This document shows, piece by piece, positions 3,255 to 55,485 of a stretch of DNA of 64,000 nt (positions within the stretch are counted from its first letter, which is position 1; each line of letters starts with the position of its first letter). The translations under genes were made by a program, and so were the position numbers. Source of the DNA: Alphaproteobacteria bacterium (GTDB lineage Bacteria; Pseudomonadota; Alphaproteobacteria; Bin95); the NCBI GenBank assembly GCA_964291285.2, contig OZ219786.1, forward strand, positions 1,312,001-1,376,000. The letters run 5' to 3'. Below the pieces are notes generated by a model that worked only from the letters and a program-made list of their open reading frames with translations, was not told the DNA's origin and did no database searches.

Positions 3255-3339
3255 GGGCCGAACCGCCAGGCGACGGGGCAGGAGAAGCAGAGATATTTCC
3301 TGTTTGACCAAAAATTTCTGGAAATATCCTCATCATGAC

Positions 3340-3367
3340 TTGACATATTGGAAACGTGTAATATGAT
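3340..3367 (+). promoter_or_regulatory. Putative sigma70 promoter of dispersed element copy 1
   Basis: TTGACA-16bp-TATGAT in an AT-rich patch; 9-bp inverted repeat GATATTTCC/GGAAATATC just upstream (3292-3328). Confidence 0.6.
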
Positions 3368-3695
3368 GAGAGTAGAGAGAGGCGGCTTGCGGGGCCGCCT
3401 TTCGCATTTCTGCGCAGAACGTGGCTGGGGCCGCGAAAAAAGACCCCGGCGGAAGCAAACGGGACAAGTGCGTCCGCCGTCTCGCGCGCGCAATCAGGCG
3501 CGCGAACCGCGCCGGCGCCGACGCGCGGGCGGGCGGGCGCACGATACGCGCGAAACAGGGTCCCGCCGCACGGACGGGCCGGCGGCGGAGGAACGGAACG
3601 CAAGAGAACGAAACGCGATGGAGGGACGACATGCAGGATTCGGGCGGATGCAGCTTCGGCGAGGCGGGCGGAGAGGGGTGCGGCGCGACGCGCCC

Positions 3696-3725
3696 CATGA
3701 CAAAACATGACATTCCATGACATGC
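3696..3725 (+). repeat. Three tandem 10-bp-period CATGACA repeats
   Basis: CATGACAAAA CATGACATTC CATGACATGC. Confidence 0.9.
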
Positions 3726-3805
3726 CCGTGGAGTGGGCCCCTGGTCTCGGACAGTTTTGTTGTAGGAAATTGACAGGTGCGCGGTCATTGGAAGGATCGA
3801 CGCCG

Positions 3806-4156
3806 ATGAGGAAGCACCGCACGCACAGCATGGCCTTCAAGCGCCAGGTCGTTGAGGAGTATCTGGCAGGCGAGACGTTTTACGGTCTGGCCCGCCGTCA
3901 TGACCTGTCTCGCACCCTGATCCGGCTGTGGCTGGAGAAGTATGAGGCCGGGGCCTTCGATGAGGAGGCCGAGGCGGCCGACAGGCTCCGGGCATATGAG
4001 GCCCGGATCGCGACGCTCGAACGGCTGGTCGGCCGGCAGGCCGCGGAGCTGGAGTTCCTAAAGGGGGCTTTGCGGCAAGGACGGCGGTCGAGGCGCGCGC
4101 CCATGTCCGTGATCGCCGGCCCCGAGGCCTCTCCGTCGCCGAAGGATGCCGACTGA
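3806..4156 (+). CDS. IS3 transposase OrfA (HTH)
   Basis: FKRQVV...LARRHDLSRTLIRLW HTH followed by a coiled coil; slippery A AAG GGG at 4060-4066. Confidence 0.9.
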   Translation: MRKHRTHSMAFKRQVVEEYLAGETFYGLARRHDLSRTLIRLWLEKYEAGAFDEEAEAADRLRAYEARIATLERLVGRQAAELEFLKGALRQGRRSRRAPMSVIAGPEASPSPKDAD

Positions 4157-42713: not shown

Positions 42714-42789
42714 TGGCAGGAGCAGCAGGACTCGAACCCGCAACCCCCGGTTTTGGAGACCGGTGCTCTACCAATTGAGCTATGCTCCT
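42714..42789 (-). tRNA. tRNA-Trp (CCA)
   Basis: Cloverleaf AGGAGCATAGCTCAATTGGTAGAGC..CTCCAAA..GGTTCGAGTCC..GCCA. Confidence 0.97.
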
Positions 42790-42853
42790 ACTGAGATTCA
42801 TGGCTTTACTTTCGGCCCTCCGCCGTTCAGTCATCGTTCGAGGCGCTGGCGCC

Positions 42854-44044
42854 TCAGTCGTCGATGGAGGCGACGACGCCGGCGCCGACGGTGCGTCCGC
42901 CCTCGCGGATCGCAAACCGCAACCCCTCGTCCATCGCTATCGGCGCAATCAGGTTCACCCCCATCGACACATTGTCCCCGGGAAGGACCATCTCAACTCC
43001 CTCAGGCAACTCTACCGTCCCCGTAACGTCCGTCGTGCGGAAGTAAAACTGAGGACGGTAGTTCGAGAAAAACGGCGTGTGACGACCGCCCTCGTCCTTC
43101 GTCAGAACATAGCACTCGCAGTGGAACTTCGTGTGAGGACGGATCGAACCGGGGCGCGCCAATACCTGACCGCGCTCCACCTCGTCACGCTTCGTGCCAC
43201 GAAGCAGAACACCCACATTGTCACCCGCCTCGCCCTGGTCCAGAAGCTTCCGGAACATCTCGACGCCCGTGCAGACCGTCTTCGTCGTCTCCTTCAGGCC
43301 CACAATCTCAACATCGTCGCCCACCTTCACGATACCCTGCTCGACACGCCCCGTAACAACCGTCCCGCGTCCCGAGATCGAAAACACGTCCTCGATCGGC
43401 ATCAGAAACGGACGGTCCTTCGGGCGGTCCGGCTGCGGCACATACTCATCCACCGCCTCCATCAGGTCCAGAACCGACTGGCGACCCTGCGCAACGTCAC
43501 CGTCCTCAAGCGCCGCCAAAGCCGAACCCTTCACCACCGGAATGTCGTCGCCCGGAAAGTCGTAGCTCGACAAAAGCTCACGGACCTCCAACTCGACAAG
43601 CTCCAGAAGCTCCTCGTCGTCAACCTGGTCGACCTTGTTCATGTAAACAACAAGTGCCGGAACGCCGACCTGGCGCGCCAGAAGAATGTGCTCCCGCGTC
43701 TGCGGCATCGGGCCGTCCGCTGCGCTCACAACGAGAATCGCGCCGTCCATCTGCGCAGCTCCCGTGATCATGTTCTTCACATAGTCCGCATGGCCCGGGC
43801 AATCCACATGCGCGTAGTGGCGCGACCCCGTCTCATACTCGACATGCGCCGTCGAGATCGTGATGCCCCGGGCCTTCTCCTCCGGAGCCTTGTCAATCTG
43901 GTCATACGCCGTGAACTCGGCGCCACCGGCCTCCGCCAGGATCTTCGTGATCGCCGCCGTCAGCGTCGTCTTGCCATGATCAACATGGCCGATCGTACCT
44001 ATGTTGCAATGCGGCTTCGTGCGCTCAAATCGAGCCTTGCCCAT
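42854..44044 (-). CDS. tufB: Elongation factor Tu (tRNA-linked copy)
   Basis: Protein identical to 26527-27717. Confidence 0.99.
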
Positions 44045-44110
44045 CGACCTCGTCCCGCTGCGATACCTGGGTTCTGGTTTCTAGTCGGTTCCGTTCGTCC
44101 CGGCCGAAGC

Positions 44111-44184
44111 TGGAGCGGGTGACGGGAATCGAACCCGCACAACCAGCTTGGAAGGCTGGGGCTCTACCATTGAGCTACACCCGC
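44111..44184 (-). tRNA. tRNA-Gly (TCC)
   Basis: GCGGGTGTAGCTCAATGGTAGAGC..CTTCCAA..GGTTCGATTCCC..TCCA. Confidence 0.97.
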
Positions 44185-44267
44185 CGGCGCTCCGTCCCGG
44201 TTTCCGTCCGTGCAGTCCTGCGCTGCGCTCACACCCCGCCGTTCGACCGTCGTCCGGGCCGTCCGAA

Positions 44268-44352
44268 TGGTGGAGGGGGTTGGATTCGAACCAACGTAGG
44301 CAACGCCAACGGGTTTACAGCCCGTCCCCTTTAGCCACTCGGGCACCCCTCC
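44268..44352 (-). tRNA. tRNA-Tyr (GTA)
   Basis: GGAGGGGTGCCCGAGTGGCTAAAGGG..CTGTAAA, long variable arm, GGTTCGAATCC..ACCA. Confidence 0.97.
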
Positions 44353-51601: not shown

Positions 51602-51766
51602 GCCCGCCTGGTACGACATCCGGTCCTGTCGGATCGTGACGAAGGAAGGGCAAGGACCGTCGTCCCGGCCCCCGCCTGTTCTCGCCCCCGGGCGGGGAAT
51701 CCGGTAGCTGGTCGGGCTTGCGGCAATTTGTTCTCAATATTCAGGCAATATTTCTCCATTCGGGGC

Positions 51767-51793
51767 TTGCGTTTTCAGAAATTGTGGTATGAT
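51767..51793 (+). promoter_or_regulatory. Putative promoter of dispersed element copy 2
   Basis: TTGCGT..TGgTATGAT (extended -10; 15-bp spacing is short); CAATATT direct repeats upstream; same position as the copy 1 promoter. Confidence 0.5.
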
Positions 51794-52043
51794 GGGTGCA
51801 AGGGAGGAGGCATCCGGAGCCGCTTCCCGCCCGCGCCGGCCCGGTGCGGAACGACCCCGATTCAGCCGACAGGCGAGGTGCGCCCTGTGCCTGCCTCGCG
51901 CCCGCGCAATCAGGCGCGCGAACCGCGCCGGCGCCGACACCCGCCCGCGCCGGCACAGGCGCGCGCAGGATACGCGCGGATAAGGGTCGCTCCCCGCCGG
52001 GCCTGCCTGTCGAACGCCAGCGGAACGAAAGGAGCCGCACACC

Positions 52044-53033
52044 ATGCCCGTCATCGACCCCGCCGTCGCGCTTTCCACCCGCCAGGAAGCCTTCTGCCGC
52101 CACTACACAGCGTCCGGCAATGCCGCAGACGCTGCAAGGCAGGCCGGCTATGCCGAGCGCTCCGCAAGGCAGACCGGATGCGCCCTGCTGGAGCGGCCCT
52201 GGATCGTCGAGCGCGTGCGCCGCATCCGCCTGTCGTGGCGGCGCACCGAACGCGACGAGGCCCGCATCCTGCTCGCCCGCTCGGAGCAGGCCTGGGACGC
52301 CGCCGTCGCCAGCGGCTCGGCTTACATGATGCTCCGGGTGCTGCGCTTCCAGGCCGAGATCGCCGGGCTTGTCAGTCCGGCCGGCGCGAACCGGGCCCGC
52401 CTCTGGCCGCTGCCGCACGAGGACGAGTTCGGCGAGATCGAAGCGGGCGAGGCGCATGTGACCGGCACCGAGCCCGGCCCGCTCGCAGACGCCGTGCGCA
52501 GCGGCCATGCCCGGGCCGAACGAGCGCTCGCCCGCCACCGCGAGCGGCGCGAGGCGATGGAGGCGCAGGAGGGCTTCGACGGGGCCGCGCATGAGGAGGC
52601 CGCCCGCAGGCTCGCCGCGGCCGTCGAGGAGCGCTCCCGCCTGCCCGTCGGCTTCGGCCCCCCGCCCGCGCCGGCAAACGACCTGCCGCCGGCCGACGAC
52701 CCGCCCGAGGAAACCTACGAATACTGCCCCTGGGCCGCCGCCGCCGCACCCGGCCACGAGGACAGCACCGACGACGACCGGGCCGACGGCGCCGAACATG
52801 ACTGGCTCTACCAGCGCCGCAACGGCTACGACGACATCTACGACCCCTGGGCCCCGGAGGAGGTCGAGGAGCGCAGGCAGAGCCGCCTCGAACGGGAAGA
52901 GCGGGGCGAAGACGAAGACAACGACTGGAGCGGACCGGCGGCGAGGAGGAAGAAGCAGAAAAAGAAGAAGGGGAAGAAGCGGAGGACCGGCCCGGAGGAC
53001 GCCGGTTCCGCCCCCGACCATGACAAAACATGA
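52044..53033 (+). CDS. Orphan terminase small subunit-like HTH protein with acidic low-complexity region and polybasic C-terminus
   Basis: LSTRQEAFCRHY..SGNAADAARQAGYAERSA...LL..P resembles the phage TerS N-terminal HTH; AAGGAG RBS. Confidence 0.75.
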   Translation: MPVIDPAVALSTRQEAFCRHYTASGNAADAARQAGYAERSARQTGCALLERPWIVERVRRIRLSWRRTERDEARILLARSEQAWDAAVASGSAYMMLRVLRFQAEIAGLVSPAGANRARLWPLPHEDEFGEIEAGEAHVTGTEPGPLADAVRSGHARAERALARHRERREAMEAQEGFDGAAHEEAARRLAAAVEERSRLPVGFGPPPAPANDLPPADDPPEETYEYCPWAAAAAPGHEDSTDDDRADGAEHDWLYQRRNGYDDIYDPWAPEEVEERRQSRLEREERGEDEDNDWSGPAARRKKQKKKKGKKRRTGPEDAGSAPDHDKT

Positions 53034-53048
53034 CATTCCATGACACGG
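53019..53048 (+). repeat. Three tandem 10-bp-period CATGACA repeats overlapping the TerS-like stop codon
   Basis: CATGACAAAA CATGACATTC CATGACACGG. Confidence 0.9.
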
Positions 53049-53077
53049 CGCCAGGGAAGCGCTTTCCGAAGCACAGC

Positions 53078-53205
53078 CGTCGCCCCGGCGCGGAGCCGGG
53101 GGCCAGCCCTGACTCTCGCGGCAGCCTCGGCGGTGCCGCCCTCTTTCCACCGGCTGCGGCGGCATCTGGAGTCAGGGATGGGTCCCCGCCTTCGCGAGGA
53201 CGACG
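53078..53205. repeat. REP-like palindromic unit (CGTC-type inverted pair)
   Basis: CGTCGCCCCGGCGCGGAGCCGGGG ... CCCCGCCTTCGCGAGGACGACG enclosing a CCCTGACTC/GAGTCAGGG stem. Confidence 0.5.
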
Positions 53206-53330: not shown

Positions 53331-54182
53331 GGTTCAATCGACATACAGGATTCCCTGGGAAGACATTATGTGATTCATGACGCTCCAACTGATTTTCGGT
53401 TGGAGTTGGGCGTATGGTGAAGCGCTATGAGCTGACGGATGCGCAGTGGGTCCGCATCGAAGGTCTGCTTCTGGGCAAGCCGGGCGATCCGGGGCGTTCG
53501 GGAGCAGACAACCGGTTGTTCGTCAACGCGGTTCTGTGGGTGCTTCGTTCGGGCGCCCACTGGCACGACCTGCCGCCGCGCTATGGGAAGTGGAAGTCGG
53601 TGCACAAGCGTTTCACACGCTGGGCCAAAGTGGGCGTGTGGGAGAGGGTGTTCGATACCCTGACGGCGGATCGCGACAATGGCTATCTCATGCTCGACAG
53701 CACCATCGTGCGCGCGCATCAACAGGCGGCGACCGGAAAAGGGGGGGCCGGGATCAGGCTCTGGGGCGTTCCAGAGGCGGACTGACGACCAAAATACACA
53801 TCGCCTGCGACACTCTCGGACGACCGCTCCGCGTGATCCTCTCGCCCGGACAGGCCGGCGACGCGCCAAAGGCCCTGGCGTTGATGGAGGGGTTTCGGCC
53901 CCGCCATGTGCTCGCCGACGCTGCTTACGACGCCAATGCCATCCGCAACCGCATCGCCGACATCGAGGCCGAGGCCGTCATCCCCTGCAATCCAACGCGA
54001 AAGCGTCTCATCGGCTATGACGCCGAAATCTACAAACACCGAAACCGCATCGAGCGCTACTTCAACAAGATCAAACACTTCCGCCGCATCGCAACCCGAT
54101 ACGACCGAAAAGCAATATACTTCCTCGCCTTCATACACATCGCTTCTGCTATCCTCTGGATGCGATGAATGTCGATTCTGCC
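53331..54182 (+). mobile_element. IS5-family (IS427-like) insertion sequence
   Basis: IRs GGTTCAATCGACAT / ATGTCGATTCTGCC; TA duplication in a CTAG context; two-ORF transposase. Confidence 0.92.
53414..54168 (+). CDS. IS5 transposase made from two frames by -1 frameshift at AAAAGGGGGGG (53737-53747)
   Basis: LTDAQW, WHDLP.RYG.W and DSTIVRAH in frame 1; GRSRGGLTTKIH, ADAAYD, RN.IER.F and RRIATRYD in frame 2. Confidence 0.9.

Positions 54183-55408: not shown

Positions 55409-55485
<77 letters not shown>

Follow-up and report, generated by a model that had tools for sequence, protein, structure and literature searches.

A genus-restricted family of dispersed units combining a conserved leader, a TerS-like gene and helically phased CATGACA arrays: a candidate non-canonical mobile element of uncultured Alphaproteobacteria

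The 64-kb stretch of alphaproteobacterial DNA analysed here (the window, to whose full length all positions without a contig name refer) carries two members, copy A and copy B, of a family of small dispersed units in which a promoter-like region, a 5' hairpin and a GC-rich leader are followed by an open reading frame (ORF) and an array of CATGACA heptamers. In the long form, represented by copy B, the ORF encodes a protein resembling the small subunit of phage terminases (TerS). The window lies on contig C2 of the source genome (G000; 6.13 Mb, 5 contigs, 68% GC, 100% complete), and other G numbers denote relatives. The family, which comprises approximately 90-115 loci in G000, is real and resembles no described element; it is old in the genus, and within individual genomes its copies are still being homogenised or still active. 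The reading that we favour, with slightly less than even confidence, is that of a new family of non-canonical mobile elements whose TerS-derived protein would bind the heptamer array. A first-pass annotation of the window, which had proposed a self-contained dispersed unit on the basis of the two loci, is partly supported overall.

Pairwise alignment of copies A and B recovers all the shared parts named in that annotation, arranged identically on the plus strand: an AT-rich patch ending in TATGATG, a hairpin, a 36-mer, GATACGCGCG followed by AGGGTC, CGGAACG, a Shine-Dalgarno sequence (SD) with ATG, and a 27-nt heptamer triplet (coordinates in Table 1). Copy A, which had been taken for a degenerate copy of B, is instead a separate, short family member that has a small ORF of its own. 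The window contains ten CATGACA against 4.6 ± 2.1 expected, six of them within the two triplets. The TGA stop of the copy B ORF falls within the second heptamer, and in the alignment of 10 full-length copies homology stops directly after the third. Across G000, the leader core (121 nt, 51880-52000) has 91 loci by blastn, and 81 of these are followed on the same strand by a phased heptamer array within 1.7 kb. The 36-mer is present 65 times at up to three mismatches (34 exact) and the 27-nt triplet 99 times (26 exact), with none in the backwards control of either. With 91 leader cores in one genome and a genus-wide distribution, the two loci represent a dispersed, self-contained element, as had been proposed, and not a two-copy oddity.

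Ten long TerS-like ORFs are found in G000, at 10 loci on 4 contigs, with 84-100% identity to copy B over at least 271 residues. Eight short TerS-like units retain only residues 1-24, 1-31 or 1-65, and the presence of N-terminal codons alone fits internal deletion. The suggestion that the N-terminus resembles the helix-turn-helix (HTH) of phage small terminases is confirmed by several searches: Pfam PF03592 (Terminase_2) matches residues 11-70 over profile positions 2-61 of 141 (E 1.2e-10, 42.6 bits, cut-off 26.1), PHROGs TerS families match residues 9-65, and the sequence matches in the PDB are to the DNA-binding domain of SF6 TerS (2cmp, 3zqp, 4zc3). A scan of 1.8 billion representatives returned 828 relatives at E ≤1e-3, including proteins of 300-450 aa with 45-60% identity, and ordinary TerS relatives of 130-200 aa align to residues ~10-115/130. 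In TerS proteins, the oligomerisation core that follows the HTH forms a ring of 8-11 subunits. The AlphaFold model of the protein, a step proposed at first pass, is confident for residues 11-60 only (predicted local distance difference test, pLDDT, ~80-88); it places long helices at 69-106 (pLDDT just 54-67) and 146-199 with disorder elsewhere. Family models see a likeness to TerS in the HTH only. For residues 100-329, an Atlas search gave scores of at most 0.85 and no relative of known function. Between species, the ratio of nonsynonymous to synonymous substitution rates (dN/dS) ranges over 0.14-0.32 in residues 1-130 and is higher, at 0.29-0.55, in residues 131-290, at dS ~0.4-0.6, a pattern of purifying selection that points to a functional protein.

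The TerS-like ORF is one of several types that follow the leader, the others being an ORF designated 'MTATDP', MPKT peptides, 'MEERHAGYG' peptides (as in copy A) and one ordinary-looking enzyme gene. The 'MTATDP' proteins, of 192-218 aa, are acidic and proline-rich, and the 218-aa ORF has no Pfam match and falls in no known family. Peptides of 31-41 aa have the motif MPKT..GN..EYPEP.PE in common among diverged copies. In one unit (C3_1748431-, at C3:1747463-1748600), a 225-aa ORF with the look, by eye, of an isochorismatase-family hydrolase lies between leader and array, an arrangement that gene capture, or two half-units placed around a gene, could explain.

The family is essentially restricted to the genus, whose genomes are metagenome-assembled genomes of uncultured Alphaproteobacteria. 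The leader is present in 13 of the 16 other genus genomes, with just two marginal matches outside the genus (E 2e-4 to 9e-4), and intact TerS-like ORFs occur in 12 of the 16, mostly several in each; 20 genomes of two sister genera gave only two single TerS-like matches, at 33% identity. There are 109-336 array dimers in each of the 12 genomes that carry TerS-like ORFs; G008, with the leader but without a TerS-like gene, has 31, the three genus genomes lacking the leader have 0-2 and the 20 sister-genus genomes 0-1. Leader, gene and array thus co-occur; for gene and repeats, this is a relation that the first-pass annotation had proposed to test. Plasmids in PLSDB yielded no match at the DNA level, whether in near or in distant mode, and one weak protein match, annotated as TerS on a Skermanella plasmid (31% identity), and a phage collection gave only four N-terminal TerS matches (33-48% identity). 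No description of such an element was found in the literature at the level of titles and abstract openings.

The heptamers are organised in G000 into 125 arrays of 2-8 copies each, which contain 432 of the 901 CATGACA. Of 323 pairs of consecutive heptamers, 252 have a spacing of exactly 10 bp and most others one of 21 or 33 bp, and the helical phasing noticed in the two window copies is thus a property of the family. Three heptamers at 10-bp spacing present both TGA and ATG in every frame; since the triple heptamer offers TGA in three frames, any unit ORF terminates within the array, and all unit ORFs do end inside it. A crude gene caller lets many downstream ORFs start at an array ATG; we discount these starts, which would arise artificially wherever stops in all three frames precede ATGs in GC-rich sequence. 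At three places in G000 (C1:1183700-1184700, C1:227990-228500 and C4:370300-370760), the array is followed by a 199-bp mini-unit in which GCGCGCATTATGCGCG and a hairpin are accompanied by an SD and the 12-codon ORF MPCERPGRRPAP; it is repeated one to three times, with a new array each time.

In phages of the SPP1/SF6 type, TerS binds phased boxes (pac) in or near its own gene. The small terminase of these phages (G1P) and the long units have in common the N-terminal HTH, by sequence, and short repeats phased by one helical turn at the gene end, and because of this resemblance we infer that the protein binds the array. The family differs from SPP1/SF6 in having no adjoining large terminase gene (TerL), a protein of double length with an unrelated tail, and a gene present in multiple copies on all replicons, with most of the ~100 arrays per genome lacking it. 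Under the favoured reading, the units would be genus-specific, self-transcribed small repeats of a selfish or mobile nature, whose 1.3-kb form would carry a gene derived from a phage small terminase, with the HTH retained and the remainder helical or disordered. Expression would be driven by a strong promoter and a stabilising 5' hairpin, and the protein would most likely recognise the 10-bp-phased CATGACA at the 3' end, by analogy with pac boxes. The resulting nucleoprotein complex would mark the element end and serve copying or recombination, and the short units may be deletion or variant derivatives that keep promoter, hairpin, leader and array and depend on protein supplied in trans.

The upstream region is that of a putative transcription unit. 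By eye, nearly every one of the 91 copies has the layout TTTGTTC, ~13 nt, AATAATTC, -35, -10 and hairpin, with varying sequence. A sigma-70 match of at least 9/12 is found in 36 copies and an extended -10 in 20 more, giving promoter-like sites in 56 of 91 copies versus 5 of 910 random 115-nt windows, with a median of 92 nt from the end of the -10 to the core. Of the promoters claimed for the two window loci, that of copy A matches at 11/12; in copy B the simple scan called no site, and a weak -35 with an extended -10 was read by eye. For the predicted hairpin, P1, pairing across 96 copies from several species holds in 87.6% of 675 cells versus 50-58% with slid partners, and double changes occupy 47 cells versus 19.9 ± 3.6 in shuffles (0 of 500 shuffles as high), a statistic to be read with the caveat that the sequences are related; they occur at 8 of 9 pairs, with numerous G-U pairs, and covariation thus backs the hairpin. 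Single-sequence folds do only slightly better than shuffled sequence (z -2.1 and -2.4), and the best-hairpin count does not separate real from shuffled sequences (9 versus 7.9 pairs). RNAalifold, run on 96 copies, on 20 copies and on 19 truncated copies, predicted only invariant pairs, and the pairs predicted beyond P1 show no variation. The leader is the most repeated stretch of the unit (78-91 blastn matches per 20-nt bin over 51880-51999), and its central 28 bases are near-invariant in 96 copies from other genomes. Rfam contains no match to the family: at gathering scores the window has four tRNAs only, and a search of 51650-53150 returned two chance-level matches (E 2.4-3.7).

These features would also suit a host family of multi-copy regulatory RNAs or leader peptides, in which an abundant structured RNA is the product, the arrays act within the RNA or as three-frame stops, and gene conversion keeps the copies alike. 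The promoter-like sites lie at a fixed distance from the core, P1 covariation with many G-U pairs fits a plus-strand RNA, and the 28 leader bases stay near-invariant across species while the ORF shows the dS given above; an SD and ATG follow the leader in 78 of 91 copies, small-ORF motifs are common to diverged copies, and long same-strand runs in two closed genomes would suit heavy transcription. We nevertheless regard this explanation as rather unlikely. The family is missing in 3 of 16 genus genomes and in the sister genera, orthologous sites are empty in relatives, the contents are variable and often deleted, no Rfam family corresponds to it, and the predicted pairs past P1 show no variation. 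The units also stand in every orientation to neighbouring genes (27 same/opposite, 27 same/same, 16 opposite/same and 11 opposite/opposite).

Some leaders are interrupted by other sequences. At C1:641313, C1:860047, C2:876803 and C3:1277650, and partly at C2:1145187, a shared foreign sequence, probably the end of an insertion sequence (IS), is fused to the leader at an identical base, where GAGATACAAG passes directly into GTGCG; the identical junction points either to insertion at one specific site of the element or to an interrupted form having been copied. In two G012 copies (L232:1-970 and L233:1-955), a group II intron-like sequence with a reverse transcriptase YADD motif (by eye) ends just 5' of P1, and its P1-side junction recurs in further copies of the same subfamily.

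Comparison of filled and empty sites, a further step named at first pass, bears on possible mobility. The genes flanking copy B are convergent and abut in six relatives (gap of 16 to ~60 bp), and are separated by 2.57 kb in G000, an insert in which bits resembling repetitive extragenic palindromic (REP) sequences accompany the element, a 344-bp piece of another repeat and a CTAG-flanked IS; the same site is element-occupied in G007 and G014 as well. Conversely, one G007 element lies in an 830-bp insert whose matching site in G000 is 7 bp. Copies are more alike within genomes (median identity 94% in G000 and 96% in G007) than between them (65-81%). Elements also mark breakpoints: in G007 (16 loci) they often lie at points where the flanks map to separate G000 places, each with its own element, and synteny between species of the genus is organised in blocks of ~1-12 kb on different contigs or replicons whose edges coincide with elements. 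The blocks examined against relatives were C2:583001-603000 and C4:125001-144000.

Several observations weigh against mobility driven by the TerS-like protein. Only ~10 of ~100 units encode it, its 329-aa ORF contains no transposase, recombinase or other catalytic domain (Terminase_2 alone in Pfam, none in NCBIfam), and structural confidence is low outside the HTH. By eye, neither of the two sites has a target duplication or a clean junction, both inserts being mosaics with other small repeats and IS, and the full-copy alignment, whose ends were read without a dedicated repeat search, has no terminal inverted repeat. The leader 36-mer is conserved above the ORF, which suggests a function at the RNA or DNA level that mobility leaves unexplained. 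Within-genome clustering could stem from gene conversion and not from recent bursts, and some copies are old, being orthologous across species and bordering the same gene block; mobility, if any, is not fast. The ends themselves are dissimilar, with the AT-rich box on the left and the heptamer array on the right. No trans-acting transposase was identified for the units, and Y1_Tnp (PF01797) has no match in G000 at E up to 0.01, with control matches in 6 of 14 genomes. Two candidate signs of transposition were rejected: apparent empty landing pads (AT-rich boxes without an element) proved to be diverged or IS-broken family members, and a simple composite transposon formed by the pair at C2 586-599 kb has outer flanks that are adjacent in no other genome and hence no simple empty site. 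A composite of the C4 type is present twice in G012, with the right limit of the duplicate inside an element and the left running into repeated intron-like sequence, so that its limits are undefined.

The orientation of the units follows a rule at a particular distance. Among consecutive elements 9-17 kb apart in G000, convergent pairs, whose arrays point inward, make up 13 of 17, a number reached in 0 of 10000 strand shuffles. Among the first 100 matches listed for each further genome, the fraction of pairs that falls in this range is 6/13 for convergent pairs and 0/32 for other orientations in G016, 2/6 and 1/37 in G015, and 3/6 and 5/40 in G011; the convergent pairs are partly orthologous across species, and the four genomes are therefore not independent samples. 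The DNA within convergent pairs varies from pair to pair and consists of conserved core genes without transposition genes. In all 16 relatives the block at C2:587-599 kb is uninterrupted, with outer flanks that map elsewhere, and arrays point into it from either end in G015 and G010 too; the C4 block starts exactly at an array in G012, G016, G010 and G007. On a larger scale, 24 successive array loci of G015 (C1:925401-2967740) are all on the plus strand, and those of G011 (C1:1-2899678) are mostly on the minus strand up to 1.51 Mb, switch near 1.55 Mb and continue with 13 loci on the plus strand. In G000, array orientation is mixed and cumulative skew irregular; its dnaA (C2:602505-602972) is located ~3 kb away from the right-hand member of a convergent element pair.

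An extended form of the favoured reading, which we think quite improbable, would account for this rule by oriented end-complexes of the TerS-derived protein and the arrays, which would both spread the 1.3-kb unit without a classical transposase and delimit 9-17 kb inward-bounded segments that move, invert or get packaged, amounting to a chromosome-wide gene-block mobility system in sponge- or marine-associated Alphaproteobacteria. Alternatively, the arrays could be polar sites of chromosome organisation, serving, when bound by the HTH, as loop anchors, insulators or polar motifs for replication or segregation. Such a role would explain the orientation rules, namely the convergent excess at 9-17 kb in four genomes (for G016, G015 and G011, again among the matches listed), the long one-strand runs in G015 and G011, and the retention of inward arrays around one gene block in G000, G015 and G010 despite different outer neighbours. 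It is nonetheless highly improbable in our judgement: three genus genomes manage without the system, the strand switch of G011 matches neither dnaA (0.867 Mb) nor sampled GC skew, orientation in G000 is mixed, and the non-independence of the genomes applies here as well. Recombinational loss of close direct repeats, together with promoter-side breakpoints, could moreover produce part of the pattern without any function.

The same evidence can be read in terms of DNA packaging. Here the arrays, bound by the TerS-like protein, would be dispersed pac-like sites, and the protein would recruit TerL, whether that of a phage during infection, of a satellite or of a head module present in the genome; packaging of host DNA would then start at ~100 sites, with gene transfer or an anti-phage decoy as the outcome. 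A TerS-type HTH combined with phased repeats ending the gene accords with this idea, as does the excess of convergent pairs at 9-17 kb, a size that would suit a small capsid such as those of P4, phage-inducible chromosomal islands (PICI) and some gene transfer agents. TerL, portal and capsid genes are missing from the window, as the first-pass annotation had noted, and whole-genome family searches agree: G000 has no Terminase_6N, TerL_ATPase or Terminase_3, and its single TerL-like gene (C2:89785-91362, TerL_nuclease-type, 526 aa) belongs to its sole head module (C2:85.3-91.4 kb, minus strand), together with capsid, S78 protease and portal genes. No TerS was read within 340 bp upstream of this TerL, a gap that the packaging explanation could use. 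Around the module (C2:85300-92400; L190:13332-20000), a primase-like ORF precedes, a TRAP transporter borders and a lower-GC stretch adjoins, and the module may be a satellite or remnant.

Packaging is, all the same, distinctly unlikely as the role of the family. None of the 10 long TerS-like copies lies beside TerL, the nearest ending 12.9 kb away and none being within 12 kb, which agrees with the earlier description of the gene as an orphan. Homologues of the G000 TerL occur in 3 of 16 other genus genomes, and PF20441 and PF03237 in 3 of 17 genomes each. Three queries (G000 TerL, PF20441 and PF03237) found no TerL in G004, G006, G007, G009, G012 and G014, that is, in 6 of the 12 genomes with multiple TerS-like copies, which argues against a need for a resident packaging machine. 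In family models, the likeness to TerS is limited to residues ~9-70, with no relatives of known function for the C-terminal part, PADLOC gave no defence-family match for the protein, and convergent pairs enclose conserved core blocks and not cargo. Restriction to two copies, constant association with TerL and lack of a match to TerS profile hidden Markov models, three of the four outcomes that the first-pass annotation had set against its own proposal, are none of them what is found.

Table 1. Features of the two units in the window
Feature	Position	Strand	Remarks
Copy B, whole unit	~51727-53045	+	1.32 kb, single long ORF
Copy B, AT-rich box (TTTGTTC ... AATATTTC), left element edge	51727-51754	+	homology start in 10 full-length copies
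Copy B, promoter-like site: weak -35 TTGCGT, 15-nt spacer, extended -10 TGgTATGAT	51767-51793	+	by eye
Copy B, predicted 5' hairpin P1 (GGGAGGAGGC / GCCGCTTCCC)	51802-51828	+	single-sequence fold, family covariation
Copy B, GC-rich leader	51829-52043	+	most repeated part of unit
Copy B, invariant 36-mer	51903-51938	+	
Copy B, GATACGCGCG, then AGGGTC	51969-51978, 51983-51988	+	
Copy B, CGGAACG	52021-52027	+	
Copy B, SD AGGAG	52030-52034	+	
Copy B, ORF, 329 aa	52044-53033	+	N-terminal TerS-type HTH, helical middle, acidic/proline-rich and basic tail
Copy B, three CATGACA (starts 53019, 53029, 53039), right element edge	53019-53045	+	
Copy A, whole unit	~3293-3722	+	
Copy A, AT-rich box and promoter	3293-3367	+	
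Copy A, promoter TTGACA-16-TATGAT	3340-3367	+	11/12 matches; 0.1 expected in shuffles
Copy A, predicted hairpin P1 (GAGGCGGC / GCCGCCTTTC)	3377-3403	+	stem sequence differs from copy B; family covariation
Copy A, leader	3404-3617	+	
Copy A, 36-mer	3487-3522 (G000 C2:1315487-1315522)	+	identical to that of copy B
Copy A, putative short ORF, 30 aa (MEGRHAGFG...)	3618-3710	+	'MEERHAGYG' type, unrelated to TerS-like ORF
Copy A, CATGACA triplet	3696-3722	+	same 27 nt as copy B

Other repeats and IS lie next to the two copies. Just 5' of copy B lies a 44-bp GC-rich REP-like repeat (51656-51699) that is found in many genus genomes at 86-93% identity, and 3' of it a small repeat containing CTCTTTCCACCGGCTGCGGCGGCATC (53100-53190) that also lies 5' of a G007 element (L058:3330-3420); by eye, the intergenic inserts around copy B and the G007 element are mosaics of several repeat families. 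The IS downstream of copy B (53353-54177), with overlapping ORFs at 53414-53785 and 53446-54168 and CTAG at either side, presumably belongs to the IS5 family, from the look of its protein, and without it the sequence matches the junction seen in G006. About 85 bp past the copy A array, an ORF starting at 3807 (within 3780-4100) is, we assume, an IS3-type OrfA-like gene, and IS-like ORFs are thus present just downstream of both window copies. The tRNA genes of the window comprise a cluster of three on the minus strand (spanning 42717-44352) and one on the plus strand (55409-55482).

Several classes of known elements have individual features in common with the family. Satellites of the Staphylococcus aureus pathogenicity island (SaPI) and PICI type carry a TerS gene that redirects helper packaging, and likewise have a TerS-like gene outside a complete phage, possibly with a recognition site of its own; the family unit, at 1.3 kb with one ORF, differs from these and from P4-like satellites in having no integrase, replication or interference genes within the element, and tens to hundreds of copies replace the single island of SaPI and PICI. 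IS and derivatives resembling miniature inverted-repeat transposable elements (MITE) are matched in high copy number, within-genome similarity, internal deletions, filled and empty sites and a role in rearrangement, but not in a transposase domain, terminal inverted repeats, a visible target duplication or similar ends. With IS200/IS605, palindrome-associated transposable elements (PATEs) and REP/RAYT systems, the family has in common the lack of inverted repeats, a hairpin near one end and strong chromosomal strand bias, which is known for single-strand transposition; unlike them, it is found in a genome, G000, that contains no Y1 HUH transposase gene. Tn7 and Mu ends, which carry several phased transposase sites, resemble it in having a short direct-repeat array at the element end, comparable to the inward arrays around 9-17 kb, whereas here the enclosed DNA consists of conserved core genes and the 7-mers stand at one end of a small unit. 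Correia, ERIC and similar repeats are small, intergenic and multi-copy with their own promoter, as are the units, which differ from them in the long conserved leader, the protein gene of the full form and the phased array, and have no similarity in Rfam.

The probability left over beyond the favoured reading and the three alternatives weighed above is assigned to explanations not yet conceived. Even on a modest reading, 5-16 genes per genome risk being labelled 'terminase small subunit' and giving rise to false prophage calls. If the favoured reading is true, the family would be a high-copy element that spreads with no more than a structured leader and a DNA-binding protein of terminase origin, outside all IS, MITE, REP and satellite families, and it would show a new way in which proteins of phage packaging can be turned to cellular or selfish roles on DNA. 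It would also help to account for the shuffling of these uncultured genomes into blocks of a few kilobases, and the convergent-pair rule provides a testable hypothesis on how such gene blocks may be bounded or moved.

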